A DNA stretch of 64,000 bases from Escherichia phage UPEC03, in sequence record MW250785, one strand, 5' to 3'. Both the position numbers and the translations under genes were made by a program. Below the pieces are notes generated by a model, which worked only from the letters and a program-made list of their open reading frames with translations, did no database searches and had not been told where the DNA came from. Every line of letters starts with the position of its first letter. The stretch's first letter is position 1. Of this stretch, positions 14,607 to 56,585 are shown piece by piece.

Positions 14607-14650
14607 AAAGCCCCTTGCATGAGTAAGGGGCTTTTGTTATATTACAAACA
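14607..14650 (+). promoter_or_regulatory. stem-loop/promoter cassette (PeSL-like) after ligase
   Basis: hairpin aaagcccctt-gcatgagt-aaggggcttt with -35-like TTGCAT in the loop, -10-like TATATT, then leader ACAAACATCGAAACGAAA. Confidence 0.55.
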
Positions 14651-14680
14651 TCGAAACGAAACAGACAAAAGGAACATCCC

Positions 14681-14953
14681 ATGCAAATCACTAAAGAACT
14701 CGAAGGCAAAGTAATCGTTCTGGTAAATGAAGACCGTTTGGCACAACTGGGTAACGGTGGTGAAAAACTGCCAGCGGACGCACTCGAAAGCCTTTCTAAA
14801 ATGCGTGTGATGCGTGTTACTGACGGTTGGGTTACTTGTCTGCCTCTGAACGACGAAGACAAAGCCGTATACGATGCACAAGCGGATTCATGGGATATCG
14901 AAGTACCTCTGGTAAACATCGAAGTTGAAGAGTGCTACGAAATCGAAAAATAA
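14681..14953 (+). CDS. hypothetical protein
   Basis: 90-aa ORF downstream of the cassette. Confidence 0.55.
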   Translation: MQITKELEGKVIVLVNEDRLAQLGNGGEKLPADALESLSKMRVMRVTDGWVTCLPLNDEDKAVYDAQADSWDIEVPLVNIEVEECYEIEK

Positions 14954-14956
14954 TGC

Positions 14957-14989
14957 TTGCTTACTGGGTAATGTAGTGGTACATTACCC
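14957..14989 (+). promoter_or_regulatory. candidate promoter with spacer stem-loop
   Basis: TTGCTT, 17-nt spacer, TACATT; 10-bp inverted repeat gggtaatgta/tacattaccc; followed by ATCGAAACGAAAGGAGA leader. Confidence 0.45.
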
Positions 14990-15014
14990 ATATCGAAACG
15001 AAAGGAGAAACATC

Positions 15015-15194
15015 ATGAAAATTATGCACACTGCAAATCAACTTCAAAACGGCAACTACGCTATCCACGATGCTATCGGTGCGCTGGTTGGGGTTTATCT
15101 TCATGGTATCAAACTCCTTGAAGTAAGTGGGAATACCTTTTATGGTGTTGAAAACATCGAAGCAGCGATGGAAATTATCGGTGACCTGAAATGA
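15015..15194 (+). CDS. hypothetical protein
   Basis: 59-aa ORF with RBS aaaggaga; start moved from track 14925 to the internal ATG. Confidence 0.5.
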   Translation: MKIMHTANQLQNGNYAIHDAIGALVGVYLHGIKLLEVSGNTFYGVENIEAAMEIIGDLK

Positions 15195-15382
15195 GTAAGA
15201 AACTCGAAATATTCGAAACTATCAGCGAAGACCCTAATCATCGCTGGTGCTGTGCGAAAACTGGTTTTGATGCTGCATGGGGTGATACTCCAGAACAGGC
15301 GCGTAAAAACTGGGAACACCAACAATTGTTTTTTGCCTGTCGGGTTCCTACCAATTATGAGGGGAGTCAATTGTTAGCATGA
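15191..15382 (+). CDS. hypothetical protein
   Basis: ATGA-coupled 63-aa ORF. Confidence 0.5.
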   Translation: MSKKLEIFETISEDPNHRWCCAKTGFDAAWGDTPEQARKNWEHQQLFFACRVPTNYEGSQLLA

Positions 15383-15675
15383 AAAATAAAGAATATGACC
15401 CAATAGAAGTTAAAGAGCGGTTATCGGTAGCAAGAAGATTCCTTGAATCTATCGACCCTGATAAACTTGGAAAATGCCCTGATACGATTTGCCTTAATTG
15501 TGGGCGATCCGTAATGGTTGGAAAGTGCTGTGATAATCAGAATATCGTTATCATGGACAGGAAAGAAGTTTCACCGGAAGTATGGGATCGGATTCAAGAG
15601 ATCATCAAAAACCCACCTGAACCGACGAAACGTTTACGCGAACTTATGAGCAGGAAACCACGTTATGAAAAATGA
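15379..15675 (+). CDS. hypothetical protein with Cys cluster
   Basis: 98-aa ORF; CPDTICLNCG...CC. Confidence 0.5.
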   Translation: MKNKEYDPIEVKERLSVARRFLESIDPDKLGKCPDTICLNCGRSVMVGKCCDNQNIVIMDRKEVSPEVWDRIQEIIKNPPEPTKRLRELMSRKPRYEK

Positions 15676-16039
15676 ACCAAGTAAAACTATCCGCCTGATC
15701 CGTTGGGAAGGGCAAGAAATCCGTTATGAAGACGACGACCGCGAATTCGTCCATGAAATGCTTGCGCATAATCTGGGATTCAAAAACGCCGCACTGGTGA
15801 TGATGCAACAAACCAGCGATGAAGACACCTGGCAATGCGTCATTCTCGATCTGGACAAAAACAAGGAATACACCGAAGATGAACTGTTTGCGCTCACAGA
15901 GAACGCTACAGCGCGTCAGAAGTGCTTCATGATCGATATGCCTCGCGAGAACTACGAGAATATCAAGAAAGCCCGTAAACAGAACAAGAACAACGTGTTC
16001 GACCTGTTCATGGGCTATCATGAAGAAACTACGGCCTAA
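15665..16039 (+). CDS. hypothetical protein
   Basis: 124-aa ORF. Confidence 0.5.
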   Translation: MKNEPSKTIRLIRWEGQEIRYEDDDREFVHEMLAHNLGFKNAALVMMQQTSDEDTWQCVILDLDKNKEYTEDELFALTENATARQKCFMIDMPRENYENIKKARKQNKNNVFDLFMGYHEETTA

Positions 16040-17139: not shown

Positions 17140-17201
17140 TAGACATCCTCCCTTTATATTCTATTTACTAAATAGTAAATATCGGGATACTTGAGGCGAT
17201 C

Positions 17202-19525: not shown

Positions 19526-19536
19526 AGGAAATTTAA

Positions 19537-20622: not shown

Positions 20623-20631
20623 GGGGGAACA

Positions 20632-23974: not shown

Positions 23975-24186
23975 GCTAATTCCTTCTCGATTGCTTCGAT
24001 GATGTGGAGAACGTAACCGTTCAGTTCTTTTGCTTTATCAGCGGCTTCAACCATACCGTAACGAGGAACTTCTAAAACGTTCGCACCTTCGAGCAGGTTG
24101 CTTTCGATGTCTACGATTACGTAGCTCTCACCGATTACTGCGCCTTTTCTCCAGTCTTTTACGAACTTCATCATTTTAGCTTTCAT
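23971..24186 (-). CDS. hypothetical protein
   Basis: start moved to the internal ATG at 24186 that follows the cassette leader and RBS aaaaggaac. Confidence 0.5.
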   Translation of the reverse strand: MKAKMMKFVKDWRKGAVIGESYVIVDIESNLLEGANVLEVPRYGMVEAADKAKELNGYVLHIIEAIEKELA

Positions 24187-24210
24187 GTTCTCGTTCCTTT
24201 TGGCTGTTCC

Positions 24211-24264
24211 GTTTCGATATGTGTAATATAACAAAGCCCTCACCGAGAGGCAAGGGCTTTTTTG
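24211..24264 (-). promoter_or_regulatory. PeSL-like stem-loop/promoter cassette
   Basis: minus-strand reading: agccc-TTGCCT...-gggct hairpin, TATATT, ACACATATCGAAACGGAA leader. Confidence 0.55.
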
Positions 24265-30170: not shown

Positions 30171-30223
30171 GGTATGTTCCTTTTCAGTTTCGTTTCGGTA
30201 AAGCTAATGTATCACTATCCTGG

Positions 30224-34514: not shown

Positions 34515-34547
34515 TTTTCTTCCTTTTCATTATTCATGCGGTATGTG

Positions 34548-37499: not shown

Positions 37500-37558
37500 T
37501 TCTCTACGTGCTTACGGATCAACAATAGATCCGTTCCTGTATATATTTATAGCAAAAA

Positions 37559-37576
37559 AGGGGCGATTCGCCCCTT
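37559..37576 (-). terminator. rho-independent terminator
   Basis: ggggcg-attc-gcccc hairpin with T-run on the minus strand. Confidence 0.6.
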
Positions 37577-37600
37577 ATGTAAAATTAGTCTAAAAATACA

Positions 37601-40872: not shown

Positions 40873-41277
40873 TTAAGCCCCTACGCACACAAAGCGATCT
40901 TCAATTGCATCATTAACACATTCGTAAATGCTAACGTCATTCGGGACGTGCTTACGAATACCCACTTTCACGATATCCATGATCTCTTTGTTGCTGCCCC
41001 ACACGTTCAGGTTGAAGTAAACACCGCCGCTATGAATTGTGCTGTTGCCAACATCAAGATACGTATCTTGACTTTCGCAGATAAACAGTTTGCGTTTTTC
41101 TTCTCCGTATGCGAAGTAGATACTGAACGATTCCATACGATGACGATCGACCGTGATGGTTTCCACTTTAACCTTTGGATCTTTGTTCAGTTCATCTAAC
41201 ACACCCTGAATGATGTGCAGCATGTTCGGCTTGATGATAGTCGGATGACTGGTGATAACTCGATGTGATGTGCTCAT
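40873..41277 (-). CDS. hypothetical protein
   Basis: 134-aa ORF. Confidence 0.55.
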   Translation of the reverse strand: MSTSHRVITSHPTIIKPNMLHIIQGVLDELNKDPKVKVETITVDRHRMESFSIYFAYGEEKRKLFICESQDTYLDVGNSTIHSGGVYFNLNVWGSNKEIMDIVKVGIRKHVPNDVSIYECVNDAIEDRFVCVGA

Positions 41278-41312
41278 AATTTAATCCTCAATAGTTGGTA
41301 CACACATAATAA

Positions 41313-41343
41313 AAAAGCCCCTGCGAAAATGCAAGGGCTTTTT
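41313..41343. terminator. hairpin terminator
   Basis: agcccctgc-gaaaa-tgcaagggct hairpin flanked by A and T runs. Confidence 0.55.
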
Positions 41344-41344
41344 A

Positions 41345-41992
41345 TCAGATAATGCGTTTTTCTTCTAACAGCTTCGCGGTATGGTTAACCATGCGAGCAT
41401 AATCACGGGCTTCTTTCTTTGAATACTTGAACCCCGCGTTGTAACTCGCCAGCGCCTTTTTCAAGTCGCCTTTGTGGTAATCAAGCCAGTATTCCAGTTC
41501 GTGAAGTGCGTACTTGGAACCACCCCGAAGGGTTTCGAGCTTATTGATTACTACGCGTTTGGAATATGATTTATCCATTCGTGCGGACGCGCTACGGGCT
41601 GTTACTTGAAAACAACCATAAGCATGATGATTCTTTTTGCCTTTCCCTACGTTCTCACATGCGCGAGACTCGATCCAGGCAATAGCCGCTAAATGATATC
41701 CCAAACGTTTCGATGTTTCCGATTCAACTGGCTTTGCAGTTTTGAGATCGTATTCGTTACCGATCCTGAAAGCGTACTCCAAAACCTTTTTCTGCTTTGG
41801 TGTAATATCATCCAATTCCTTAACATAGCTGAGGGCATTGGCTGGCGCTTTCTTCATTACTGTTGCTTGTTGTAGCGGTAAAGTTGACTTCACAGAAGGG
41901 AGTGTTTGGATAAACTCTCCTAACGGATCAGTCGCCGCGTTGCCAGAAAAAGAGCATAAGAAAATGCTGGCAGCAAAGATAATTTTCTTCAT
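41345..41992 (-). CDS. lytic transglycosylase (SLT domain) with signal peptide
   Basis: signal peptide MKKIIFAASIFLCSFSGNA; SLT catalytic region AWIESRACEN...YGCFQV; start at internal ATG 41992. Confidence 0.65.
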   Translation of the reverse strand: MKKIIFAASIFLCSFSGNAATDPLGEFIQTLPSVKSTLPLQQATVMKKAPANALSYVKELDDITPKQKKVLEYAFRIGNEYDLKTAKPVESETSKRLGYHLAAIAWIESRACENVGKGKKNHHAYGCFQVTARSASARMDKSYSKRVVINKLETLRGGSKYALHELEYWLDYHKGDLKKALASYNAGFKYSKKEARDYARMVNHTAKLLEEKRII

Positions 41993-43019: not shown

Positions 43020-44366
43020 TTAAAAGTTCTCTTCGACGAATGCAGCCAGTCGCCCACGATATACGGTATCCAGGATCACATGACTTGAATGACCGTACTC
43101 TTTAAGTTTTTCAACCGCATACACAAAGCCGTTGTTAACAGCAGTGTTGCGCGGGTTGTCAATCTGTTTAATGTTCCCGCATAGTATCAGAAGGGTGTTC
43201 TCACCGCAACGGGAAATGATGGATTTGATTTCGTGATTGCTCAAGTTTTGACATTCATCAACAATCAGAACCGAACCTTTACCCGGATCAGGATGCCCGA
43301 TTGAGCGCCCACGGAAGTAATACAGGCTAGGGAACTGGACAACGTTTTTCTCCAGCAGCCCTTCTACGTATTTGTCAACTTCCGGTTGATCCTTAAACAG
43401 AATGTTCAGGCTCGTAATACATGGTTCTACAGCAGGACGCAGTTTTTCGCCAAGAGTACCAGGTAAGAACCCGATTTCGCCCGACAGAGGGCTATCTGCC
43501 TTGACATACATCAGGTTTGCGAAGTGTCCCGCGTTTACCATGTGCATTGCACCAGCAACAGCCAGCATGGTTTTACCTGAACCCGCCGCGCCCATGATGG
43601 TCACAACGTCATTGTTTTTGTCCAGAATAGCATCAACGAATGACGCTTGCAGAGCATCGCGAGGCTGAATTGTTTTCATCAGCTTACGCTTTAACGCCTG
43701 TTCGTGCTTAATAGGCAACACTTCAAGCTGAAACTCTCCAGCATTCACCACACGCCCTACAATCTCACCACACGATAGAATGTATTGGTTAGGGTAGAAA
43801 TCCGCGTCAGGAAGCGATGAATACGTTATAACGGCAACAGGCCCGACATACTCCAGGACTTCAACAGTTTCCCAGAACAGAGGCAGGTCGATATAACCTG
43901 AATACAACACATCACTATCTTTCAGCGAGTCATCGCCAGTGTATTGAAGAACCGAACAACCTTTAGACATCGCGATCAACAGCATGTTAATGTCACGAGT
44001 CACCAGAGTTGCGCCCTGCTGAATACAAGTTGCAATGATCCGCGCATCCTGTTTATCCAGAGGGAATTCTTCGGTGCCGTCATAATCGACGATTTTCAGT
44101 GTTACGCTTTCCGGTACTGCTGGGTTCGATAAGTTTAACGAAACCCCTGTTTGGGTAATTGCTTCATAATTTTGTCCCAGGATTGCTTTGGACAAAAGCC
44201 GGATCGCCAGTCGTGCTTCATGAGCGGTTCGCTCTTTGCTTTTCAGGTGATCCAGTTCTTCCATCGTTGCAGCGGTGATAATGATTTCGCTGTCAGGTTC
44301 GATGTAAGAATAGATTGAATATGGGTTACTAATCAAAACATTGGTGTCTAATACGTATTTTGACAT
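43020..44366 (-). CDS. PIN-domain PhoH-like ATPase (PhoH2-type)
   Basis: N-terminal PIN-like YVLDTNVLI; Walker A GAAGSGKT; Walker B VLIVDECQN. Confidence 0.8.
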   Translation of the reverse strand: MSKYVLDTNVLISNPYSIYSYIEPDSEIIITAATMEELDHLKSKERTAHEARLAIRLLSKAILGQNYEAITQTGVSLNLSNPAVPESVTLKIVDYDGTEEFPLDKQDARIIATCIQQGATLVTRDINMLLIAMSKGCSVLQYTGDDSLKDSDVLYSGYIDLPLFWETVEVLEYVGPVAVITYSSLPDADFYPNQYILSCGEIVGRVVNAGEFQLEVLPIKHEQALKRKLMKTIQPRDALQASFVDAILDKNNDVVTIMGAAGSGKTMLAVAGAMHMVNAGHFANLMYVKADSPLSGEIGFLPGTLGEKLRPAVEPCITSLNILFKDQPEVDKYVEGLLEKNVVQFPSLYYFRGRSIGHPDPGKGSVLIVDECQNLSNHEIKSIISRCGENTLLILCGNIKQIDNPRNTAVNNGFVYAVEKLKEYGHSSHVILDTVYRGRLAAFVEENF

Positions 44367-44375
44367 ACATTAACC

Positions 44376-44900
44376 TTATGTGGTTTCGTTAAAAAATGTG
44401 CCGAAAACCTCTTTCGCTTTCCGGTCATAAACGGCTTTTGCTTCTTCTGGAGTGGTATAATACCCCAAAAATTTTCTTTTTCCATCTATGTTTATCTGCG
44501 CTTTATACTTCCCATTTGCTTTGTGATAAGAAACACCTTTCAACCCCGTACTGCTGTTTGAATTACATTTCTTTTTCATCGCGTTTTGTTGGTTCGTCGC
44601 TTTCTGTAGATTTCTTGCTGTATCTCCATTTTCAACACCATACACATGATCTACGATAGGAGGAAGATAACCATTCTCAACGTAAAACACTATTCGGTGT
44701 CGCAAATACATAGAACCTTTAAAATGAATTTGGGAATACTCGTTCTTGCTTCCGGCTTCACTTCCAGGAGACATAGGGCCGCGCTGAATTTTCCAATACA
44801 CTTTTCCCGTAGATGTATCAACATCTACATAACTCAGAAGAGACTCAATCCCTTGAATCTCTTCCTGTATGGTTCTTGATGAATAACCATGACTTTTCAT
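44376..44900 (-). CDS. HNH homing endonuclease with AP2 domain
   Basis: RHRIVFYVENGYLPPIVDHVYGVENGD...NL plus AP2-like GLKGVSYHKANGKYKAQINIDGK; ATG at 44900 preferred to the track GTG at 44963. Confidence 0.65.
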   Translation of the reverse strand: MKSHGYSSRTIQEEIQGIESLLSYVDVDTSTGKVYWKIQRGPMSPGSEAGSKNEYSQIHFKGSMYLRHRIVFYVENGYLPPIVDHVYGVENGDTARNLQKATNQQNAMKKKCNSNSSTGLKGVSYHKANGKYKAQINIDGKRKFLGYYTTPEEAKAVYDRKAKEVFGTFFNETT

Positions 44901-46617: not shown

Positions 46618-46634
46618 ATTTCACCTACAAAAAA

Positions 46635-46650
46635 AGCCCCTTTCGGGGCT
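46635..46650 (-). terminator. rho-independent terminator
   Basis: agcccc-tttc-ggggct hairpin with T-run on the minus strand. Confidence 0.6.
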
Positions 46651-46654
46651 GGGA

Positions 46655-46918: not shown

Positions 46919-46990
46919 TTCAATCCCCTTGTTTATCTGTTTCGTTGTCTACGAGAGAGATATTATCACAACGGGGATTAGTGTCAACAG

Positions 46991-47254: not shown

Positions 47255-47257
47255 AAT

Positions 47258-47686: not shown

Positions 47687-48045
47687 ACAATACCCTCTTC
47701 TTCGAGCACTTCCCAGATCAGGCGATCCAGGTGCATCAGGTTCCACATAACGGAGTCATACGAACCCAGCGAGCGGGAGTAAATCACTCCCCATGAACGA
47801 TAAGCCTTTTGGAATGATTCAGCACTGTTTTCATCGTGCGGCATATCGTCACCCGAAGCGATCAGCAGTTTCAGAACCATCAGGCTATTGAGTGCCTTTG
47901 GTGTGAATTCCTGTTCGCTTAACTTCATCGCGTAGCGTTCGATGATCGCGATTGACTTCGGATCTTTAATACGCCCATCTGTACGGCGCGTTTTAAACGC
48001 TCTCATTAATTCATCAACTACGGCGGTACACTTCATATGCTTCAT
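47683..48045 (-). CDS. hypothetical protein
   Basis: ORF; start uncertain (48045 or 48096). Confidence 0.45.
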   Translation of the reverse strand: MKHMKCTAVVDELMRAFKTRRTDGRIKDPKSIAIIERYAMKLSEQEFTPKALNSLMVLKLLIASGDDMPHDENSAESFQKAYRSWGVIYSRSLGSYDSVMWNLMHLDRLIWEVLEEEGIV

Positions 48046-48391
48046 CCTTTTCCTGTACAGACATCCGATTATAGCGGATCTCTTCGCGCTGTTCAACTTC
48101 TCTCACTGCTTCGGCTTTCTTTTCAGCGGTGAGTATGTGATGTACTACAGCGTTTCGGATTTCCCAGAGATATTCAATCATCTGCATATCTTCAACGGTG
48201 TGGTAGCCTTTCATATCACATTCAAATACAATTTCATCGCGTTCTGCCATTGCCACCTGTGCGGTAGAAGGACAAATAACCATTCCAGAGTATTTTTCAA
48301 TCAACGATTCCAGTGTACGCGGTTTTGCTGGAATGTCAATAGATACCGGAACCATTCGCATCGTTGAATCATTATGGGATTGGTAAATCAT
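48014..48391 (-). CDS. hypothetical protein
   Basis: 125-aa ORF. Confidence 0.5.
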   Translation of the reverse strand: MIYQSHNDSTMRMVPVSIDIPAKPRTLESLIEKYSGMVICPSTAQVAMAERDEIVFECDMKGYHTVEDMQMIEYLWEIRNAVVHHILTAEKKAEAVREVEQREEIRYNRMSVQEKDEAYEVYRRS

Positions 48392-48684
48392 CAGAATGTG
48401 ATCTCCGCAAACTGCATTCTACGCTCAATCGCATGGATAGCGTTATCACGCTGTTCTTTGTTTTCATATCCAGCCCAGGTAATCGGAGTTGAACAGATCA
48501 GGTGAAAAGTGATTGCTGGGTGTCTCTTCCCTTCAACAACGATTGTTGCATCATCTTCGATCCAGGTTACGTGATCCAGATTCACCGGATAGTTTCTTAC
48601 GGTAACAGTTTCACCAACCATAGGCGACACGTCCAGAATATCACGATCACGAACGTATGATTTAATACGAGATACGATTAACAT
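48391..48684 (-). CDS. hypothetical protein
   Basis: 97-aa ORF. Confidence 0.5.
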   Translation of the reverse strand: MLIVSRIKSYVRDRDILDVSPMVGETVTVRNYPVNLDHVTWIEDDATIVVEGKRHPAITFHLICSTPITWAGYENKEQRDNAIHAIERRMQFAEITF

Positions 48685-49838
48685 TATTTCAACTCCACTG
48701 CATATACATCGGTTTCAGGGGCTTTGTGTACGCGCATATCTTTACCACATACCGCATAAGCCGGACAGTTACGGCAACCGTTATGATCCTTGTTGCCCGT
48801 CAGTTCTTTACGGAACTGTTTTGTTTTCGGGTGTTCCCAGATATCCTTCACAAAATCTTCGGCTTCCAGAACATCCAGACCTTCTTCCCAGCCACCTTCA
48901 ACCCAACGTTCGGTAAACGAGCAAGGGAAGAACTGACCACGTTCATTAATGTAAGAGCTAAACATCGTCGCTTCACAGTCTTCGGCGTATTGCTTGTACT
49001 GTTCGAAGTTCGGGTGTCCCTCCATCGCTTCAACGAAAGCGGGGGCTGAACAGCTATCGAATCCAAATCCTACACCAGAATCGAGGCAATATTCAACAAG
49101 TTTTTTATATTGTTCGCGGGTAACGGTGTCCCAGTTCTTACCGCGTCCTTTTTGTTTCAGTCCCAGGAACACGATCGCGTTGACTTGTTTCAGGCGCGGA
49201 TCATTCTTCACGGCATCAACCACGTTAAACGCATCATCATAGGTTTTCGAGCTAACCATGAAGTGAAGGTTGATTTGCTGTTGTCCGGCTTCTGTCAGGT
49301 TCGCTACTGAGTCGAAAGCGACATCAAAACCAGCGTGTTTATAAACCGATACCGCAACAGCCCCAGCAACCGCCGCTAAACGCGCTGCAACGTCTTTTGA
49401 TACGTCAGCAATGGTAAGGTTCGGTACAATGCCTTTAGAACGCGCATACGCCATCATATCGAACATATCAGGGTTTGTTTGCCCCTGTGCATCAGCACCG
49501 AGTGCGCATTGAGTCAGCCAGGGCATTTTGTCGATGATTTTTTTGAAGTTGGCAAGATCCATGTTGAACCCGTTAGGGTTATTGGACTTGTAGCAGAACC
49601 CGCAGAGTTTACCAGCGGGACCATTACATTTGGTAGTGATCTCAACATCCAAGATTTCTGGGAATGGGGCATAGGTAGGATCAGTTTCGAACGATGTTCC
49701 CCAGCGAGCAAACTCACCAGTTTTAACGTTGAAATTGTAGTTGTACCAATTAGAGCGAGCGAAGCGCATATTACCCTGCTGGTAAATCATTAGCGAAGGG
49801 GCTTTCATTACAGTCTGTGCGCGGTCAATAATATCCAT
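48684..49838 (-). CDS. putative Fe-S / radical-SAM-like enzyme
   Basis: 384 aa; Cys cluster TTKCNGPAGKLCGFCYK (Cx7CxxC) near the N-terminus and C-terminal GCRNCPAYAVCG. Confidence 0.4.
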   Translation of the reverse strand: MDIIDRAQTVMKAPSLMIYQQGNMRFARSNWYNYNFNVKTGEFARWGTSFETDPTYAPFPEILDVEITTKCNGPAGKLCGFCYKSNNPNGFNMDLANFKKIIDKMPWLTQCALGADAQGQTNPDMFDMMAYARSKGIVPNLTIADVSKDVAARLAAVAGAVAVSVYKHAGFDVAFDSVANLTEAGQQQINLHFMVSSKTYDDAFNVVDAVKNDPRLKQVNAIVFLGLKQKGRGKNWDTVTREQYKKLVEYCLDSGVGFGFDSCSAPAFVEAMEGHPNFEQYKQYAEDCEATMFSSYINERGQFFPCSFTERWVEGGWEEGLDVLEAEDFVKDIWEHPKTKQFRKELTGNKDHNGCRNCPAYAVCGKDMRVHKAPETDVYAVELK

Positions 49839-49849
49839 GTATATAGTTC

Positions 49850-50056
49850 TCAGAATTTAATGTGGGATTGGAAAACAGCACGAGCAAGTGTTTCGCTATC
49901 GAACGGGATTGATGTTCCCTGGTCTTTGCTGTCAATGTTAACGCGCCAGAACTCACTAGACCCGTTTTTGGTGGAGTAATGCATCAGCGTTACCGTCTTA
50001 TTCTTTTCCAGGAAGGTGCGTTTATCAATCTCTGTTTTTATTTCGTGCTGCATCAT
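49850..50056 (-). CDS. hypothetical protein
   Basis: 68-aa ORF. Confidence 0.45.
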   Translation of the reverse strand: MMQHEIKTEIDKRTFLEKNKTVTLMHYSTKNGSSEFWRVNIDSKDQGTSIPFDSETLARAVFQSHIKF

Positions 50057-50313
50057 TTTACACTCCGTTTCAGTTTACGTTCGTCAGCCAGTTCTTTTTT
50101 GTACGTTTTGATGTACTTCCCGTTAAGGATGCGAAGCTGTTGGAAAACTTTGTTGCACAAAGCACGTTTTGCTTTGTATTCCTGCGTATTACGGATTGAT
50201 TCGACCGTCATACCCATTTCGTTTTTAGGGTACGCGCTCAACTCCCTGCCGATCTCTCTGTGCCAGTTGCTTAACTGATCACGCTGTGCTTTGTACTCTT
50301 CAAAAGTTAACAT
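50053..50313 (-). CDS. hypothetical protein
   Basis: 86-aa ORF following the cassette variant; RBS ggag. Confidence 0.5.
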   Translation of the reverse strand: MLTFEEYKAQRDQLSNWHREIGRELSAYPKNEMGMTVESIRNTQEYKAKRALCNKVFQQLRILNGKYIKTYKKELADERKLKRSVK

Positions 50314-50325
50314 AACAATCTCCGG

Positions 50326-50376
50326 TTTCGTTTCTATGTGTGTAAGGTATCATTACCCTACACACAACGCAAGCGA
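50326..50376 (-). promoter_or_regulatory. stem-loop/promoter cassette (variant)
   Basis: minus-strand reading: TTGCGT, 17-nt spacer containing inverted repeat gtgtgtaggg/ccttacacac, TACCTT, leader CATAGAAACGAAACCGGAG. Confidence 0.4.
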
Positions 50377-50379
50377 TTT

Positions 50380-50580
50380 TTATTTTCCGTAAAGAACACA
50401 ATATTCTTTATATTTTTCACGGGCTTTTTCTTCATTACTAAAGGAAACTCCCATTCCAAAATCAGAACCTTCGAACGTAACATCCCACGATTCATACCCA
50501 TCTTCCGAATAATAGGAAAGTGTTATTTTACGATCTTCAAGAACAAGTTGTTCAACAACAATATCAATTTCAGTAGTCAT
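50380..50580 (-). CDS. hypothetical protein
   Basis: 66-aa ORF. Confidence 0.5.
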   Translation of the reverse strand: MTTEIDIVVEQLVLEDRKITLSYYSEDGYESWDVTFEGSDFGMGVSFSNEEKAREKYKEYCVLYGK

Positions 50581-50723
50581 AGTTCATTTCCATAATCTTT
50601 TGCTGCATCTTCGGGGGTTGCGTCCAGTCGGTAAAGCTCAACGGCTAACGGACTGGGTTTGATTTCGCGGTTCAGGATCTCACTGATACCGCGAAGGAAT
50701 TCGATATAAGGACGGAATCTCAT
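50577..50723 (-). CDS. small hypothetical protein (48 aa)
   Basis: hand-found ORF ATGA-coupled to both neighbours. Confidence 0.35.
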   Translation of the reverse strand: MRFRPYIEFLRGISEILNREIKPSPLAVELYRLDATPEDAAKDYGNEL

Positions 50724-50971
50724 TTGATACGTACCGCGTTAAAAGCCTGGTTGCGCAGTTCATAAGCCTGTTCAAGCTGTTCTGTAGTGAACAGAGGACT
50801 ATCGGTGTTAGTGGTGAAACTGCAAATGGTTTTGTTGTCGGCGTTAACTTCTTCAACAACGATTTCATAACCCCAGATCCCGCTGTACTCACATTTCACG
50901 TTACGGTACTTGATGTAAACCGCAGCAACATCTTCTTTTTTGTAGTTCCGGCTTTTGTAGATGATTTCCAT
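50720..50971 (-). CDS. hypothetical protein
   Basis: start at ATG 50971 after the cassette leader and RBS ggagg. Confidence 0.5.
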   Translation of the reverse strand: MEIIYKSRNYKKEDVAAVYIKYRNVKCEYSGIWGYEIVVEEVNADNKTICSFTTNTDSPLFTTEQLEQAYELRNQAFNAVRIK

Positions 50972-51040
50972 GATATCCTCCTTCGTTTCGATGTGTGTAA
51001 TATAACAAAACCCCTCACCATAGACAAGGGGTTTCTTTAA
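50972..51040 (-). promoter_or_regulatory. PeSL-like stem-loop/promoter cassette
   Basis: minus-strand reading: aacccc-TTGTCT...-ggggtt hairpin, TATATT, ACACACATCGAAACGAAGGAGG leader. Confidence 0.55.
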
Positions 51041-51053
51041 CAAAAAGTGCTAT

Positions 51054-51656
51054 TTAATAGTATCCAGGATCTTTGAAGTGTGCTTTCATATATCGCAGAA
51101 TTTCACGCAACATCTGGGTTTGCTCATGTCCACACTGTGAAGCCATATCGATCATGACGCGAGTCATTTCGACGTTCTCCAAGCTGGTTATACGCTGTTT
51201 TAAGGCTTTGTTTTCCTCTTCCAACTCAACCATACGGTCATATGCTTTGATGCGCTCCAAAGGCATATCAGGGCGCTGTTTGAGGACACGGGCGCGTGAC
51301 ACTTCGCATTCGTGATTTGCTTTCCAGTGATCACGTTCACCAGCAATTTTATCATTCTCCTGGTGTAGACGTACAATCTCTTTAAGGAGGCGTTCAGTGG
51401 TATCGGGATCAAACGAAACCATGTATTGCATCAGGGATTGCAACCACAGATCCTCTTGTACCGCCTGTAACGCTTTAGGCCCAATAATGGTAAACTCGCG
51501 TTTCTTCATGTTGCTACCGCAACCGTAGTTAACGTTACCCGCAATCGAACCTGGTTGATTAGTACCATCCCATTTGTCACCGATAACAGGTTTTACTTGC
51601 TGAATAGCACGATTCAGCATTTCGAATTCTTCATCTAAAATCATTTCATATCCCAT
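51054..51656 (-). CDS. hypothetical protein
   Basis: 200-aa ORF. Confidence 0.55.
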   Translation of the reverse strand: MGYEMILDEEFEMLNRAIQQVKPVIGDKWDGTNQPGSIAGNVNYGCGSNMKKREFTIIGPKALQAVQEDLWLQSLMQYMVSFDPDTTERLLKEIVRLHQENDKIAGERDHWKANHECEVSRARVLKQRPDMPLERIKAYDRMVELEEENKALKQRITSLENVEMTRVMIDMASQCGHEQTQMLREILRYMKAHFKDPGYY

Positions 51657-52045
51657 AATTCATATTGTGAGCGAAGGATAGCGTAAAGGCTACCGATATG
51701 GATTGTGTCTACCGGACACTGGAAAAGATCCCCGCGCATCATGTTAAACTCGATATCGTTACGTTCAACATAGTTACCGATCATTGATGTCCAACCCATC
51801 ACCAGGTTATAACCATCTTCTGATAACCCATAAGCCAGCCTAACCATGATACAACGCTTATCAGCCAGTTCTACGCGCATATGGGTACTGGTATGAGTGA
51901 CCTTGTTCGGGAATCTGCGAAACATTTTAGTAAGGAGTTTGGCGGTTTCAATATTGAACGCCAGTTCTTGATCCTTACTGGTCTGGTTGTCATGACGGCG
52001 ATTCAGATACTTTTCCATTTTTGGGTTGAGATTCACATGTTGCAT
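51641..52045 (-). CDS. hypothetical protein
   Basis: 134-aa ORF. Confidence 0.5.
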   Translation of the reverse strand: MQHVNLNPKMEKYLNRRHDNQTSKDQELAFNIETAKLLTKMFRRFPNKVTHTSTHMRVELADKRCIMVRLAYGLSEDGYNLVMGWTSMIGNYVERNDIEFNMMRGDLFQCPVDTIHIGSLYAILRSQYELWDMK

Positions 52046-52251
52046 AATATATTCCTCACAGGTTTAAAGCGTTCTTTTCCGGTTCCATTACATGAACTGC
52101 ATTTCGGAGATCGGTCGCTATCATATCGCCCAGATCCATTACATGCAACACATTTCCGTAATTTCCAGCCATACACGAACCGCATATAATCGGTTCGTGC
52201 GGCCTTGCGTTCGTGGAAGTTCATACTTTGTTGTAAACCTGAACAACCCAC
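52033..52251 (-). CDS. small DnaJ-type zinc-finger protein
   Basis: two CxxCxGxG repeats (CVACNGSG, CSSCNGTG). Confidence 0.5.
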   Translation of the reverse strand: MGCSGLQQSMNFHERKAARTDYMRFVYGWKLRKCVACNGSGRYDSDRSPKCSSCNGTGKERFKPVRNILCNM

Positions 52252-52427
52252 ATTTCGATGTTCGGTGAGTAAGTAACGTTCACCATCGGCATAGTGCGGT
52301 ATTTGTATGCGGCTTTGTACGCATCGAGTTCAGTCGGAACACAGAAAGAGAAACCGTTGTCATAACGTTCTGCGTTAGAAACTTCACAACCAACTACAGA
52401 AGCAATGTTTTTGTTCATGTTCATGAT
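52221..52427 (-). CDS. hypothetical protein
   Basis: start at ATG 52427 after the cassette leader and RBS aaaggaaaa. Confidence 0.5.
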   Translation of the reverse strand: MMNMNKNIASVVGCEVSNAERYDNGFSFCVPTELDAYKAAYKYRTMPMVNVTYSPNIEMWVVQVYNKV

Positions 52428-52500
52428 GTTTTCCTTTCTCTGTTTCGTTTCGATGTGTGTAATATAACAAAGCCCCTGCATTGCTGCAAGGGCTTTTTTC
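52428..52500 (-). promoter_or_regulatory. PeSL-like stem-loop/promoter cassette
   Basis: minus-strand reading: aaaaaagccc-TTGCAG...-ggggcttt hairpin, TATATT, ACACACATCGAAACGAAACA leader. Confidence 0.55.
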
Positions 52501-52503
52501 ACT

Positions 52504-52812
52504 TTAATCGAATTTTTCTGGCAACTGGTCTACAAGTGCTTGAGTTTGATGAAGTTCTTCACTCAATTTATCACGATAATGAACCAATTCGCGGGTTCTT
52601 GATGCGGAATAGCTAATGAGTTTATCAGCGGTAGCGGTGTAACCGTAACCAGCACACGCGATTTCCAGTTTTGCGTTATCGCCGTTAGGTACGCGGATAT
52701 GAGCATACGCCAGCAAGTTTTTAACCGCTTGCAACAGTTCATGATCTTCTTTGCCGATGATAAACTGGTTTGGTTCTGCTGAATCCATATACAGTTCTTC
52801 GTCTTTGTTCAT
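52504..52812 (-). CDS. hypothetical protein
   Basis: 102-aa ORF. Confidence 0.5.
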   Translation of the reverse strand: MNKDEELYMDSAEPNQFIIGKEDHELLQAVKNLLAYAHIRVPNGDNAKLEIACAGYGYTATADKLISYSASRTRELVHYRDKLSEELHQTQALVDQLPEKFD

Positions 52813-53342
52813 TTTGCAGCCTTATACATTTCCAGGACGCGGTTCATGTGATCTTGAGATTGAGGCACACCCGCGAAGTTCAGTTTGATGAAGAATTCCA
52901 GACGATCCTTTTTGGTGCATTCATCCAGCCCCAGGGCAGGTAATGAAATGTTTTCAAAGGCTCGTTGTTCGTGTCGTGGTATTTCGTCCCAGAACAAACG
53001 GGAACCGTCCGGCATAGGAATCCCAATTTCACCTTCGTAGACTTTGATAATCGTCGTCAGGCGTTGTTTGCCGTCGATCACTTCTACCCAATGGGTTTCG
53101 TTGAACTGACTATCAACCGCGATCGCAATGATACCGCAAGGGAAACCACTGATCAGGGTAGTCAGAAACGCATCTTGCTCTTTCTGCGTCCACACATAGG
53201 GGCGCTGGTAAGATGGATTCAGATCCAGATCTTTATTCTTCCACCAATGCAGATAACTCCCAACCATGATCGCGTGATCGCGACTGCGAAAAGTTAACTG
53301 ATCGCGGATACGGTTATGAACCGGAATATCATCTTTAGACAT
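52809..53342 (-). CDS. DUF262 (ParB-like / GmrSD N-terminal-like) domain protein
   Basis: motifs NPSYQRPYVW and IDGKQRLTT; 177 aa with no DUF1524/HNH partner domain. Confidence 0.55.
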   Translation of the reverse strand: MSKDDIPVHNRIRDQLTFRSRDHAIMVGSYLHWWKNKDLDLNPSYQRPYVWTQKEQDAFLTTLISGFPCGIIAIAVDSQFNETHWVEVIDGKQRLTTIIKVYEGEIGIPMPDGSRLFWDEIPRHEQRAFENISLPALGLDECTKKDRLEFFIKLNFAGVPQSQDHMNRVLEMYKAAK

Positions 53343-53664
53343 GATTCACCACCCAGCCCAACAAACCAGTATTGATAGCCGCAACGGTAAGGCAAATCAC
53401 CGCCAACACCCGCGCGTTATGAACTTTGGTTTTCAGTTCTGCGATCTCCTGATCATTTTCACTTTCGAACTCTTCACGGGTTCCATAGTAACCAGGATCA
53501 GCAGCGGTTGCCGGACGAACTGCATCTTTTTCAACGATGGTTGCATAACCGCTCGTTACTTTCGTTGCTCCGTACCAGTCACCGCGATCGTTATTGATGA
53601 TCAGGTGATCACCCTTCGCGTTATGCTTCGACTTACCAATGACAACTACACGTTCACCATTCAT
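53335..53664 (-). CDS. hypothetical protein with C-terminal TM helix
   Basis: C-terminus VLAVICLTVAAINTGLLGWVV. Confidence 0.5.
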   Translation of the reverse strand: MNGERVVVIGKSKHNAKGDHLIINNDRGDWYGATKVTSGYATIVEKDAVRPATAADPGYYGTREEFESENDQEIAELKTKVHNARVLAVICLTVAAINTGLLGWVVNHV

Positions 53665-53671
53665 AATATAA

Positions 53672-53932
53672 TCACTCTTTCACGTTTTGTTGTAAGAACT
53701 CTAACAGCTTTCCTTCGGCCTGTAAAGCATAAAGTTTATTCAGCTTTGCGATATTTTCAAAGTCTGATTTTTCGCTGAACGACCAGACCCCATCATCGGA
53801 AACCAGCGCACCGATTGATACGCCAGTTTCAGGATCACGCGTCAACGCCAGCCCCAGGGGATGCAGGATATCTTTATTGATTTTCCAAATCAGCCCCAAT
53901 TGAGATAAGGTGTTGAAATCAACGTGACTCAT
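53672..53932 (-). CDS. hypothetical protein
   Basis: 86-aa ORF. Confidence 0.5.
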   Translation of the reverse strand: MSHVDFNTLSQLGLIWKINKDILHPLGLALTRDPETGVSIGALVSDDGVWSFSEKSDFENIAKLNKLYALQAEGKLLEFLQQNVKE

Positions 53933-54315
53933 TTAGGCAATGCCCCGAAAGACAGCAGCCCCATACGATGATCGTTATCTGATTCACCAGTGCTGAATTC
54001 AAATTCTTCACCGCTGATACTGATAGCGCGGAAACCGTCTTTCAGGTATGGCAACAGATACAGAGGGATCAGCATCATGTTTGAATCGTCGCTCCACTTA
54101 CGGAAGCCCAGATTTTTCATTTCTTCCAGCGTCAAATCATTCGGATCGACGGGTTCGAAATCAGGGGAAGCGTAAAGGCGTCCAGGCAGATCGCGAATAT
54201 TTTTCACGGTGAATGAATCACCCCAGGACTGATACACGGTAGGTTCAGCGGCGCGGGTTGCGGTAGCCAGGAGGATCATTTGACAGATTTGAAAAGTTGT
54301 TGCTTTTGGTTTCAT
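53929..54315 (-). CDS. hypothetical secreted protein
   Basis: N-terminal signal-like sequence. Confidence 0.5.
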   Translation of the reverse strand: MKPKATTFQICQMILLATATRAAEPTVYQSWGDSFTVKNIRDLPGRLYASPDFEPVDPNDLTLEEMKNLGFRKWSDDSNMMLIPLYLLPYLKDGFRAISISGEEFEFSTGESDNDHRMGLLSFGALPK

Positions 54316-54725
54316 GATGTATATCCCACAAGTTTAGTCAGTAAATTCCCCATAGTCTTACGCGCATGATCGCGGATCTGGCTATACGGAACATATTTGA
54401 AGTCATCCATTTCAGTAATGGTTCGACCATTTTTAACGAAGGTTGAAGCACAAACACATTTTTCTGCTTCGGGGTAATTATTACCCACATATACGAATAA
54501 CACAAGCTCTTTTTTACTCGTATAATCAATCAGACCCAGGCTCAACAGTTCGTGTTGTTCAACTACAACGCCCGTTTCCTCGAAGCATTCACGGATAGCA
54601 GCATTGATCGGGGATTCGCCTTTTTCGATATGCCCCTTTGGGATGTCCCAATGAGGCGTTTCGGTTGCGTGGCCCATTAAAACGCTGCCGTTATTCAGGA
54701 AGAGAATACCAGCAGACCGTTCCAT
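54312..54725 (-). CDS. Nudix hydrolase (NudE-like)
   Basis: perfect Nudix box GHIEKGESPINAAIRECFEETGV. Confidence 0.8.
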   Translation of the reverse strand: MERSAGILFLNNGSVLMGHATETPHWDIPKGHIEKGESPINAAIRECFEETGVVVEQHELLSLGLIDYTSKKELVLFVYVGNNYPEAEKCVCASTFVKNGRTITEMDDFKYVPYSQIRDHARKTMGNLLTKLVGYTS

Positions 54726-54970
54726 TACTGTGCTCCGAACTTACGATCGTATGCTGCCAGCGCTTTATCTGCTGCATCAACTGCCTGAGTGTGTTTGTTA
54801 GCGGATTTCTCGCTGAACACTTCGCGGTAAATGGCAACCCAGAGGGATCGGCGGGTCTGTTCGCTTTCTTCATTGACGCGAGAAGCCGCAAAAGCGTTAT
54901 GTTCTTTGATCAGTTGTGCGAATTCAGCATCATGATCAATGGTTTGTTGTTGAATAGCTGTAGAAGTCAT
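54725..54970 (-). CDS. hypothetical protein
   Basis: 81-aa ORF. Confidence 0.5.
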   Translation of the reverse strand: MTSTAIQQQTIDHDAEFAQLIKEHNAFAASRVNEESEQTRRSLWVAIYREVFSEKSANKHTQAVDAADKALAAYDRKFGAQ

Positions 54971-55245
54971 AATTCACCTATTTCTTTCAGTTCAGTTTTG
55001 AGTTTTTCGAGAGTCGATTGGTACTGAATGCCGTTTTCTGGATTTGGCAGACGGGCATAATACAGCGTACCAGTTTTGTTGATGTCTGACAACACCTCTT
55101 GATCGAGGGTAGCCGGATCGATGCCAAAAGCCATTTTAAACATGGTTTCCGCGTCTGGGGCGAATCCGTGAGAGAATGCAAACCCCAGCTTTTTATCAAA
55201 CTGCATCAGGGATACTTTGTTACCCATTGATATCTTATTCCCCAT
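54967..55245 (-). CDS. hypothetical protein
   Basis: ORF; start uncertain (55245 or 55227). Confidence 0.4.
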   Translation of the reverse strand: MGNKISMGNKVSLMQFDKKLGFAFSHGFAPDAETMFKMAFGIDPATLDQEVLSDINKTGTLYYARLPNPENGIQYQSTLEKLKTELKEIGEL

Positions 55246-55531
55246 AATGTTCTTCGTAATCCTCGCATTCTGGGAGATAGGTTTCGCAGAACATACACAG
55301 CGTGAAGAATGTAGGCTGGCGAATTCCGATATTATCGGGTAAGTACATCCAGAACGTGTTAGCAAACACGATGAACGTTTTCAGGTTTTCAACGGTTACG
55401 GTACTGACACCATCATAACCGGATTGAGCAATTGCGCGTTCCAGGGGAACAGGGTATTGCTCGCAGTAATCGACGTAATGATCGCTTGTTACAAGCGCAT
55501 TAGCCGCTTTTACGAGATCGGTAATTTTCAT
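55235..55531 (-). CDS. hypothetical protein
   Basis: 98-aa ORF. Confidence 0.5.
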   Translation of the reverse strand: MKITDLVKAANALVTSDHYVDYCEQYPVPLERAIAQSGYDGVSTVTVENLKTFIVFANTFWMYLPDNIGIRQPTFFTLCMFCETYLPECEDYEEHYGE

Positions 55532-55794
55532 TCAATATATCCCCAACGAATTTTTACGTTATCTTCTGACGCCGGACTTGTAGGAGTTGGGTATGGATAA
55601 CTTTGCGCTTCCCACAGATAAACAATGGCGTGTTTTGTCAATTCTTCGATAACTTCATCGAAAGTACCGACACTGGTTTGTAAAGGCAACGAGAAAGGTT
55701 TATCGTTGGTTTCTACTTGAGCGATTGGCCCATCTACCAAGATAACACGAACCGTTGTGTGCTCAGACATATGAGCATAGATTTTGTTTTTCAT
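55528..55794 (-). CDS. hypothetical protein
   Basis: 88-aa ORF. Confidence 0.5.
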   Translation of the reverse strand: MKNKIYAHMSEHTTVRVILVDGPIAQVETNDKPFSLPLQTSVGTFDEVIEELTKHAIVYLWEAQSYPYPTPTSPASEDNVKIRWGYIE

Positions 55795-56129
55795 GCGGGT
55801 ACATATTCCACTTTGACAGGTTTTGCAATAAGGCGTTCTTTGGTGAAGCCTTGCCCGTTACAGATATCACAAGTAACGTTGAAGTCTTCCATCTGATCAA
55901 CCCAGCCAGAATCCGGTAAGCCAGAAGGATACGTGTTAACACGCACAACTTCGAACCCTTTACCATCGCATTTCGGGCATTTGTGCGGGTACTGGGATTT
56001 AACCATACTCAGCAGTTGCCCCAGCGTTGTTGAACGATCGAAGCGTTCGACCAGTGCCATTACATCAGCAATACGAATCGAACCAGCATCAATAACGGTA
56101 TACAGGTTTTTCGGTACATTTGAGCGCAT
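55791..56129 (-). CDS. DnaJ-type zinc-finger protein
   Basis: CxxCxGxG repeats (CPKCDGKG, CDICNGQG); start at internal ATG 56129. Confidence 0.5.
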   Translation of the reverse strand: MRSNVPKNLYTVIDAGSIRIADVMALVERFDRSTTLGQLLSMVKSQYPHKCPKCDGKGFEVVRVNTYPSGLPDSGWVDQMEDFNVTCDICNGQGFTKERLIAKPVKVEYVPA

Positions 56130-56133
56130 AGTA

Positions 56134-56280
56134 TATTTCTCACTTAAAAATTTTTTTGATGAAAGAGAGGAACAATCCACCACCGAACATGATCCAGTAT
56201 CCCGCGCCGTCACCGTTAAACAGGACATACACAGCGACACCATAGCAAAAGATTTCCGCGATATTCAGTAAGTTTCTCAT
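56134..56280 (-). CDS. small TM peptide (48 aa)
   Basis: hand-found hydrophobic ORF with strong RBS aaaggaggg. Confidence 0.4.
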
Positions 56281-56369
56281 AACTCCCTCCTTTGTCTACA
56301 CCAGGTATTTTACCAGAAAGTAGATTACTGTCAACAACAAAGTTTTATCAACCCACTTATCACCAGTCA

Positions 56370-56510
56370 TTAGTAATCCCCTACAGGTTGAGAAGATGCA
56401 ACGCTCAGTATACGGAAAGAGCATTCATTCCATTTGCAATAAGTTTTCGCACAGTGAACAGTGCCTTTCATTACAAACCCGTTTGAGAACACCAGCCAGT
56501 AAAGTTTCAT
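56370..56510 (-). CDS. small Cys-containing protein (46 aa)
   Basis: start at ATG 56510 after the cassette leader and RBS aaaggagg. Confidence 0.4.
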   Translation of the reverse strand: MKLYWLVFSNGFVMKGTVHCAKTYCKWNECSFRILSVASSQPVGDY

Positions 56511-56585
56511 GATTGCCTCCTTTGTTTCGACACCCCTAATATAACAAAAGCCCCTGCACGAATGCAAGGGCTTTTTTCAAATATT
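56511..56585 (-). promoter_or_regulatory. PeSL-like stem-loop/promoter cassette
   Basis: minus-strand reading: aaaaaagccc-TTGCAT...-ggggctttt hairpin, TATATT, leader GGGGTGTCGAAACAAAGGAGG. Confidence 0.5.

Follow-up and report, generated by a model that had tools for sequence, protein, structure and literature searches.

Candidate PeSL-type terminator–promoter cassettes between the early genes of Escherichia phage UPEC03

The promoter-early-stem-loop (PeSL) elements of T4-type phages were described in phages RB49 and phi1 by Arbiol et al., in 2010 (PMC2839356), and are defined by an upstream stop codon, an A/T-rich tract, a sigma-70-like promoter, a stem-loop, a Shine–Dalgarno (SD) sequence and a start codon. 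Five subclasses were recognised, including those in which the stem-loop overlaps the −35 box, lies between the two boxes or overlaps the −10 box, and reporter assays on the RB49 and phi1 elements gave both terminator and promoter activity. The same paper mentioned PeSL-like sequences in phage RB43. Here we examine a stretch of 64,000 nt from Escherichia phage UPEC03 (sequence record MW250785), referred to throughout as the window and numbered from its first letter, which contains seven near-identical intergenic cassettes (C1–C7) and at least three looser variants. We consider it probable that these cassettes are bifunctional units of the PeSL type, in which an intrinsic terminator is fused base for base with a host sigma-70 early promoter.

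The PeSL family was extended to the T4/PST and nt-1/KVP40 phages by Comeau et al., in 2014 (PMC4122927), where the nt-1/KVP40 stems take the form A3-4G3-loop-C3T3-4 and the promoter reads TTGYVH N17 TAWWAT. In RB43, early promoters with a G at −33, a G or C at −36 and an A-rich tract from −40 to −44 were predicted by Nolan et al. (2006), who reported no MotA and no middle promoters in this phage, and early promoters of this general type drive transcripts 5–8 min after infection (PMC3486835). The seven cassettes of the window are located as follows.

14588–14683, plus strand: C1, 3′ of the DNA ligase gene gp30; 21-nt repeat aaATAGCACtttTTGcTAAAA at 14588–14608; hairpin 14606–14635 (−21.1 kcal/mol, z −4.8); −35 TTGCAT 14615–14620; −10 TATATT 14638–14643, preceded by TGt; predicted +1 at 14650; leader ATCGAAACGAAAC 14650–14662; SD AAGGAA at about 14669–14674; ATG at 14681.
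24184–24264, minus strand: C2; hairpin 24233–24260; −35 TTGCCT 24248–24253; −10 TATATT 24225–24230; leader ATCGAAACGGAAC; ATG 24184–24186.
34512–34591, minus strand: C3; hairpin 34558–34587; −35 TTGCGT 34574–34579; −10 TATTAT 34551–34556; a different leader, without the TCGAAAC motif; ATG 34512–34514.
41275–41346, minus strand: C4; hairpin 41312–41343 (−21.2 kcal/mol, z −6.2); −35 TTGCAT 41329–41334; −10 TATTAT 41306–41311; a different leader; ATG 41275–41277.
50969–51056, minus strand: C5; 21-nt repeat AAATAGCACTTTTTGTTAAAG at about 51035–51056; hairpin 51007–51035; −35 TTGTCT 51022–51027; −10 TATATT 50999–51004; leader joined directly to GGAGG; ATG 50969–50971.
52422–52500, minus strand: C6; hairpin 52469–52496; −35 TTGCAG 52484–52489; −10 TATATT 52461–52466; full leader, ACACAC followed by ATCGAAACGAAACAG; ATG 52422–52424.
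56508–56579, minus strand: C7; hairpin 56546–56575; −35 TTGCAT 56562–56567; 18-nt spacer; −10 TATATT 56538–56543; partial leader GTCGAAACAAAGGAGG; ATG 56508–56510.

An initial annotation of the window, made from its sequence, had claimed at least seven copies of such a cassette. The six principal copies that it listed are each present at their given positions and the count of seven full copies holds, its list being incomplete by the copy at 41279–41346 on the minus strand, our C4, whose hairpin was exposed by a generic terminator scan in which the cassette hairpins were top-ranked in each third of the window. A hidden Markov model built from the seven copies recovers exactly those seven in the window, with E values from 4e-13 to 7.5e-18, while two of the looser variants score E values of about 0.01–0.03. 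The 18-mer leader alone has six matches in the window at three or fewer mismatches, against 0.16 expected.

Along the transcribed strand, the stop codon of the preceding gene is followed by an A run, GCCC(C)TTGC, a loop of 3–6 nt, GCAGGGGC and a T run, and then by G, T, TATATT or TATTAT, six bases (usually ACACAC), the leader core ATCGAAACGAAACAG and an A-rich stretch; AAGGAA or GGAGG and the ATG complete the series. The stop codon of the upstream gene lies 0–16 nt before each hairpin and the ATG 26–37 nt after the −10 box; C1 and C5 additionally carry a 21-nt element, aaATAGCACtttTTGyTAAAr, upstream of the A run. In the RNA, the series has the shape of an intrinsic terminator, a GC-rich hairpin with UUUUGUUAU after it, and the upstream A run makes this shape symmetrical. 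As DNA, the same bases read as an A-rich tract (the A run, at about −45 to −40), a −35 box TTGCxx, a spacer of 17–18 nt, supplied by 3′ arm and T run together, and an extended −10 box (TGnTATATT), the TG being present at −15/−14 in five of the seven copies. Compared with shuffled controls, the hairpin of C5 is the weaker one (−13.7 kcal/mol, z −2.6); folding energies for the other six lie between −18.9 and −21.4 kcal/mol (z −4.8 to −6.2). The TTGC had originally been placed in the loop; it is instead paired in the upper stem, and the last one or two bases of the −35 hexamer alone reach the loop. Similarly, the 17-nt spacing first proposed for all copies applies to six of the seven, C7 having 18 nt.

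Every sequence feature in the published PeSL definition is present, which bears out the likeness originally drawn. The genome is of T4 type and the cassettes are intergenic, between same-strand stop and start codons; the sigma-70-like boxes are about 17 nt apart with an A/T-rich tract upstream; the stable stem-loop occupies one of the five described positions, overlapping the −35 box and the spacer; and the element is repeated in hyperplastic regions of small open reading frames (ORFs), the whole genome of the related Cronobacter phage GAP161 holding 11–12 copies, all of them in early small-ORF regions and none at 100–174 kb, where the late structural genes lie. By every feature that can be tested in sequence the cassettes are PeSLs, apparently not identified under that name before in the RB43/GAP161 clade.

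The source phage belongs to the RB43/RB16/GAP161 group of T4-type phages (Straboviridae; Pseudotevenvirus according to the GAP161 record, Pseudotevenvirus being the RB43/RB16 group). Megablast searches with positions 48000–58000 and 10000–34999 of the window matched about 178 phage genomes, the top matches being GAP161 (96%), Enterobacter phage EC-F1 (95–98%) and Klebsiella phage Fraggle_ER53 (Fraggle), and these three were compared with the window together with RB16 and RB43. All seven sites are positionally conserved in the five relatives, including RB16 (86% identity) and RB43 (82%), and cassette identity (89.4% for RB16 and 84.5% for RB43) lies slightly above the genome-wide aligned averages (86.1% and 81.8%). 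When the sites of the window and the five relatives were pooled with five further GAP161 copies, 35 distinct hairpin sequences were obtained, all of which fold, at −10.8 to −21.6 kcal/mol. Stem pairs were counted from independent folds because MAFFT places the 3′ arms in different registers, so that one structure line does not fit all rows. The covariance that the initial annotation proposed to look for is seen among these 35 variants as double-sided compensatory changes at five stem positions, for example G-C to C-G, A-T to G-C, C-G to T-A and C-G to A-T, and the partners of the invariant TTG switch between pairing bases alone (A or G opposite T, C or T opposite G). Independent annotators have marked the hairpin as a terminator in the records of phages Miro and Matisse, and the KP27 record gives the C1 ortholog, 3′ of the ligase gene, overlapping labels of ‘putative terminator’ and ‘putative middle promoter’. 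A middle promoter of the MotA type was considered for this label and rejected, as there is no TGCTT box at −30 on reading the sequence and RB43 has no motA.

Several points weigh against a combined terminator and promoter. The −35 hexamers agree with the consensus at 3–4 of 6 positions and two of the seven cassettes pass a generic promoter scan; most of the T run is able to pair with the A run, so that terminator efficiency is not certain; C3 and C4 are without the family leader, which is thus not essential to the design; and a literature search found no transcriptome paper and no transcript data for this phage group. The weak −35 match and the failure of most copies in the promoter scan would also suit a simpler account, namely that these are plain intrinsic terminators, with promoter-like hexamers arising by chance in an A/T-rich tail. 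Such an accident is difficult to reconcile with a −35/−10 spacing fixed at 17 nt in 29 and 18 nt in six of the 35 variants, with the conservation of the TG and the −10 box, and with a leader whose onset is fixed 6 nt past the −10 box. The same −10 and leader are moreover found at other sites without a hairpin, as in the window, or with a hairpin differently placed, and, with identical geometry, at about 200 promoter-type sites of T1-like phages; plain terminators of the window, such as those at 46618–46654 and 57762–57819, have no such tail. We consider accidental promoters very unlikely.

If the cassettes are terminator and promoter in one, transcripts arriving from upstream would fold the hairpin and end in its U tract, which sits within the spacer and −10 box of the next promoter, and RNA polymerase would restart about 7 nt past the −10 box. 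Each small group of genes would in this way receive an insulated, separately initiated early transcript with an unstructured, A/C-rich 5′ end, and the cassettes would be stable, selected punctuation marks rather than mobile elements. The original proposal that they terminate the upstream gene and supply promoter and leader to the next is favoured by the sequence features, by the compensatory evolution of the stem and, by analogy, by the reporter assays in RB49 and phi1.

The looser variants and further sites in the window bear on the role of the hairpin, and are listed here.

10519–10646, plus strand: V1; separate terminator 10524–10547; TTGCAC 10574–10579, 17-nt spacer, TATCTT 10597–10602; unrelated leader; ATG at 10644.
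14954–15017, plus strand: V2; TTGCTT 14957–14962, 17-nt spacer, TACATT 14980–14985; hairpin 14966–14989 over the spacer and −10 box (−15.6 kcal/mol), no T run; leader ATCGAAACGAAAGGAG; ATG at 15015.
50311–50382, minus strand: V3; TTGCGT 50367–50372, TACCTT 50344–50349; hairpin 50338–50365 over the spacer, −10 box and start region (−19.7 kcal/mol), no T run; leader ATAGAAACGAAAC; ATG 50311–50313.
6814–6876, plus strand: a further PeSL-like site, unlisted by the initial annotation; TTGACA 6820–6825, 17-nt spacer, TAAGAT 6843–6848 with TG; hairpin GTGCGGGT..ACCCGCAC enclosing the −10 box.
30171–30223, minus strand: promoter-like TACATT, then a leader copy CCGAAACGAAACTGAAAAGGAAC and ATG; no hairpin.
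46919–46990, minus strand: promoter-like TTGACA, 16-nt spacer, TAATAT; leader with ACAACGAAACAGA; no terminator hairpin.

The variants first reported at 14957–14989 and 50326–50376 are not built like the main copies, the hairpin being a different one that covers the spacer and −10 box and has no T run. At the third, 10574–10602, the promoter-like boxes are present, the terminator being a separate one upstream. The −10/leader segment of this site is swapped in GAP161 for the family leader ACACACATCGAAACGAAAC, a short conversion patch. At the V2 site, RB43 has a hairpin of the C1 type in place of the form found in the window, which indicates that the position of the hairpin can change at a single locus. 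The V3 stem shows a compensatory change in RB16, and the V3 cassette is absent from EC-F1 and Fraggle together with the gene upstream of it.

Conserved hairpins without a T run, as in V2 and V3, imply that some hairpins must act other than by intrinsic termination, and Arbiol et al. speculated that a DNA-binding protein may target the stem-loop (PMC2839356). Both points favour a reading in which the cassettes are promoters only, with a hairpin that serves as a stabiliser of RNA 3′ ends, a processing site, or a site for protein binding or recombination at the level of DNA. The seven main copies, with a GC-rich stem and T run in full terminator form, speak against this, as does the finding that a PeSL stem-loop of RB49/phi1 lowered the expression of a reporter to much the same extent as the terminator rrnB T1 (PMC2839356), and we judge promoters without termination to be unlikely.

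Three other sites in these regions deserve mention. In the promoter-like site at 46919–46990 (minus strand), the ribosome-binding site holds GGGGATT and the promoter spacer its complement, AATCCCC, the two being kept in all five relatives; their pairing could mask the ribosome-binding site in read-through transcripts, and transcripts from the local promoter would be without the 5′ pairing partner. At 37494–37600 (minus strand) a terminator, AAGGGGCGAATCGCCCCTTTTTT, is followed directly by TATAAATA, a late-promoter motif of the T4 type, forming a composite of terminator and late promoter. Near record position 52.7 kb of RB43, which corresponds to about 10615–10646 of the window, a tandem duplication of about 27 nt, caacttaactttgaggatgacattatgaa, doubles the ribosome-binding site and start codon of the gene downstream of V1.

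Returning to the terminator–promoter reading of the main copies, the predicted +1 is the A of ATCGAAAC, 7 nt past the −10 box, which would make the leader (also rendered AUCGAAACGAAAC) the extreme 5′ end of the transcript. A leader common to all copies had been proposed; it is complete in four of the seven (at 14.6, 24.2, 51.0 and 52.5 kb, where the leader with its optional preceding C occupies 14650–14662, 24207–24219, 50981–50993 and 52443–52455), partial at 56.5 kb and missing at 34.5 and 41.3 kb. Its frame with respect to the ATG that follows takes all three values among the copies, so that a coding role is rejected. The ORFs said to be artefacts of read-through, with the peptide ITHIETK, are seen at 50720–51043 and 52221–52502, and the claim that they are artefacts is correct. 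The second corresponds to GAP161_165 (94121–94402 in GAP161), for which the RefSeq start is a GTG inside the cassette hairpin, giving 93 aa; its ortholog in EC-F1 and RB16 is annotated from the ATG past the ribosome-binding site, giving 67 aa, and the 93-aa version very probably reflects misannotation.

Two further functions for these sequences were tried and rejected. As an enhancer complementary to 16S rRNA, the leader has a longest complementary run of 7–9 nt, no better than shuffled leaders, and a sigma-54 promoter in TAGCAC..TTGC would by inspection have a GG..GC spacing of 8 nt, not 10. At gathering thresholds Rfam gave two tRNAs as the sole matches in the whole window, the cassettes matching no known RNA family, and a permissive Rfam scan of 50200–52600 gave one match, which is meaningless.

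It had also been suggested that the cassettes mediate the shuffling of gene modules, and that breakpoints in gene content between related phages might coincide with them. The window was aligned to the five relatives, and the gaps of at least 40 nt amount to about 40 events, with 77 clusters of breakpoints. Breakpoints fall at 3/7 hairpin cassette junctions and 1/4 variant cassette junctions, at 13/25 other intergenic gaps of at least 35 nt and at 31/88 tight gene junctions, so that no enrichment at cassettes is seen (3/7 against 45/117 junctions, one-sided Fisher p=0.55).

Individual events do involve cassettes. The gene frd.1 (GAP161_161), kept in GAP161, Fraggle, RB16 and RB43, is missing from the window, and both of its GAP161 flanks align to 50960–51007 with 48 nt shared (the comparison covering GAP161 92544–92857); the signature is clearly that of a deletion by recombination, with the C5 leader as one partner and another promoter–leader copy, downstream of frd.1, as the other. 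The region upstream of C5 differs in EC-F1, where another hairpin and one additional gene are joined at 51007, the point at which hairpin and −10 box meet. Downstream of C3 it is RB43 that differs, in both gene and leader, and its junction falls at 34585. These events, the exchanged V1 leader of GAP161 and the occurrence of the cassette in unrelated phage families that do not share its neighbouring genes might suggest elements that are primarily mobile or recombinogenic, shuffling gene modules through excision and insertion of mini-circles as their main role. The breakpoint counts do not bear this out, the seven sites are fixed in all five relatives, the indel adjacent to C2 shows just 5 nt of microhomology (TTAAT), and many indels are tied to homing-endonuclease genes in the annotations of the relatives; a main role in shuffling seems to us extremely improbable. 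The original suggestion retains the frd.1 deletion and the two replacements with a junction in a cassette, and loses the expectation of enrichment. Recombination at cassettes occurs, with weak support for a shuffling role; in the genomes compared it does not dominate what they do and is at most a side effect, since repeats of 60–90 nt will occasionally serve as sites of homologous recombination as a by-product and not as a main role.

The C1 region (14590–14664, plus strand) and the C5 region (50978–51057, minus strand) share about 78 nt at 87% identity, inverted and 36 kb apart, and could in principle be a substrate for inversion of the intervening segment; no such inversion is found in the five relatives. 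Differences in gene content are mostly gene-sized insertions, losses or replacements, many of them annotated in the relatives as HNH or GIY-YIG homing endonucleases, and events independent of cassettes are found at 2154, 3330–3672, 11966, 12497–13061, 30220–30763, 44361–44898, 61255 and 61730–62444. For orientation, the counterpart of the window in GAP161 is at about 40–106 kb, and the genes in the window include nrdA/B, rnlA, pseT, cd and two tRNAs, the DNA ligase gene and the baseplate block gp27–gp25, a long leftward series of small early genes, mostly unnamed, and gp57A/B, gp1, gp3, gp2, gp4 and gp53.

Parts of the cassette are found well outside this phage group. A blastn search with C6 gave 1,166 places in 203 phage records, mainly of Pseudotevenvirus and Slopekvirus, and a 41-nt query of the −10 box plus leader gave 700 records. 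The leader ranges over T4-type phages (the RB43, KP15, RB49 and Aeromonas PX29 groups), T1-like Drexlerviridae (hundreds of copies) and V5-like Certrevirus, and is also present in a Vibrio nt-1-like phage, at an early-promoter-like site adjoining an unrelated gene. Cronobacter phage PBES 02 (Vequintavirinae) and Pectobacterium phage POP18 show the same design, AAAGGGGTTGAC-ttcg-GTCAGCCCCTTTT, TATTCT, CCATCGAAACGAAACAGACAAAAGGAAC and ATG, the POP18 leader being identical at 28/28 nt (E 8e-6); T1-like phage TH21 reads AAATAGCACGAATTGCTAAAGCCCttcgGGGCTTTT..TATATT..CATCGAAACGAAAC; Aeromonas phage PX29 has a separate terminator followed by CTTGCG N17 TACTAT ACACACATCGAAACGAAA; and an RB49-like phage has TTGACA N17 CATAAT acacCCATCGAAACGAAACAC. 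No homolog of the genes downstream of the T1-like and V5-like cassettes is found in UPEC03. The leader has no match in 5,426 E. coli genomes, so that copying from the host is rejected, and literature searches for the motif returned nothing relevant and no paper mentioning the leader.

The 21-nt element of C1 and C5 has a history of its own. A 21-nt direct repeat, aaATAGCACnnnTTGnTAAAA, was reported in 2024 in phage TLS, in 21 copies, and also in T1, Rtp and Rogue1 (PMC11447400), whose authors considered its function unknown, naming a stoperator, an enhancer site or an UP element, and connected it neither with a leader nor with T4-type phages. An exact-pattern scan of IMG/VR for the leader gave contigs of 174–180 kb, 149–152 kb and 46–53 kb, and a scan for the 21-nt repeat followed by the leader gave at least 120 loci, almost all on contigs of 45–53 kb with several copies each; among the matches listed, one fixed repeat–leader spacing accounts for 134/150, T4-type matches being 10–11 nt longer. 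When 402 unique repeats were collected independently of the leader, TCGAAACGAA was found at two or fewer mismatches in 209, with the same exact offset in 186. In T1-like phages the leader stands at a fixed distance downstream of the repeat as ATCGAAACGAA, a −10-like hexamer lies at a fixed 22 nt from the repeat with a G at −14, and a few copies nest a terminator hairpin between repeat and −10 box. The V5-like phages have the leader and hairpin design in common with the window and not the repeat, which is seen in the RB43/KP15 group and T1-like phages only. The repeat itself holds the palindrome TAGCA-N5-TGCTA, and its TTGCTA hexamer ends either 22–23 or 32 nt upstream of the −10 box, one helical turn apart, a difference that would suit an UP-type or protein-binding site.

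It is possible, and we put it forward tentatively, that the cassette represents one version of a signal for expression found across phage families; what is observed is the sharing of sequence and a fixed geometry. The modules of such a signal would be the repeat ATAGCACnnnTTGnTAAAA, an extended −10 box, a near-fixed 5′-terminal RNA AUCGAAACGAA(AC) and often a nested terminator, and it would either be exchanged between co-infecting virulent phages or be kept because a common host component reads the repeat and the RNA 5′ end. Should this hold and the sharing be functional, the hitherto unexplained T1-like repeat would be part of a promoter, and a common host-directed signal for early expression would be indicated; it is this sharing of the repeat and the +1 leader across families that most merits follow-up.

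For the phage group itself, the cassettes give correct gene starts, as at GAP161_165, and a map of the early transcription units of about 200 sequenced therapy-candidate phages of Klebsiella, Enterobacter, Cronobacter and E. coli. In engineering, about 80 nt would supply both a terminator and a promoter, a compact and portable insulator unit. The idea of PeSL-driven shuffling is tempered by the comparison, the cassettes being stable and breakpoints no commoner there than at other junctions.

In comparison with known systems, the cassettes resemble the PeSLs of RB49 and phi1 in organisation. Both are intergenic from stop to start codon and combine an A/T-rich tract, a sigma-70-like promoter, a stable stem-loop and an SD sequence in hyperplastic early regions, and the stem-loop lies over the −35 box, the spacer or the −10 box, all three arrangements being present in the window; an RB49-like phage also shares the leader, as CCATCGAAACGAAACAC. 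They differ in the stem, which is AAAAGCCC..GGGCTTTT here and polyG..polyC there, in the −35 box (TTGCxx as against a perfect TTGACA), and in that here one arrangement dominates, with seven near-identical copies that have the −35 box inside the terminator. The PeSL papers make no mention of a conserved +1 leader or of an upstream 21-nt repeat, and it is on the RB49/phi1 elements that functional tests were made. With the nt-1/KVP40 PeSLs (PMC4122927) the cassettes share the A-run and T-run flanks of the stem, a TTGYVH −35 box, N17 and a TAWWAT −10 box, and in CZ01, an nt-1-like Vibrio relative, the stem encloses TTGACA and the leader is CATCAAAACGAAAC. The arms are swapped, however, being GGG..CCC in nt-1/KVP40 and GCCC..GGGC here, in another phage genus and another host.

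The T1-like repeat matches C1 and C5 in consensus, in orientation to transcription and in its intergenic position upstream of a start codon, and precedes only these two of the seven window cassettes and six GAP161 sites (8889, 9337, 55228, 92577, 92949 and 140103). The fixed T1-like distances of 22 nt to the −10 box and 33 nt to the leader are not those of the hairpin cassettes, which have 32 and 43–44 nt, one helical turn more to the −10 box, with the terminator hairpin and its own −35 box filling the gap; the GAP161 site downstream of frd.1 has the T1-like 22-nt geometry. Like the morons of lambdoid phages (promoter–gene–terminator), the small accessory genes here are flanked by a promoter and terminator of their own. 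Unlike in morons, neighbouring units here share a single overlapping element, at once terminator of the first and promoter of the second, and the genes are of normal phage base composition and positionally conserved, a contrast that Nolan et al. (2006) also drew for T4-like phages. As a kind of element the cassettes are known already, the phage group being one for which PeSL-like sequences had received only passing mention.

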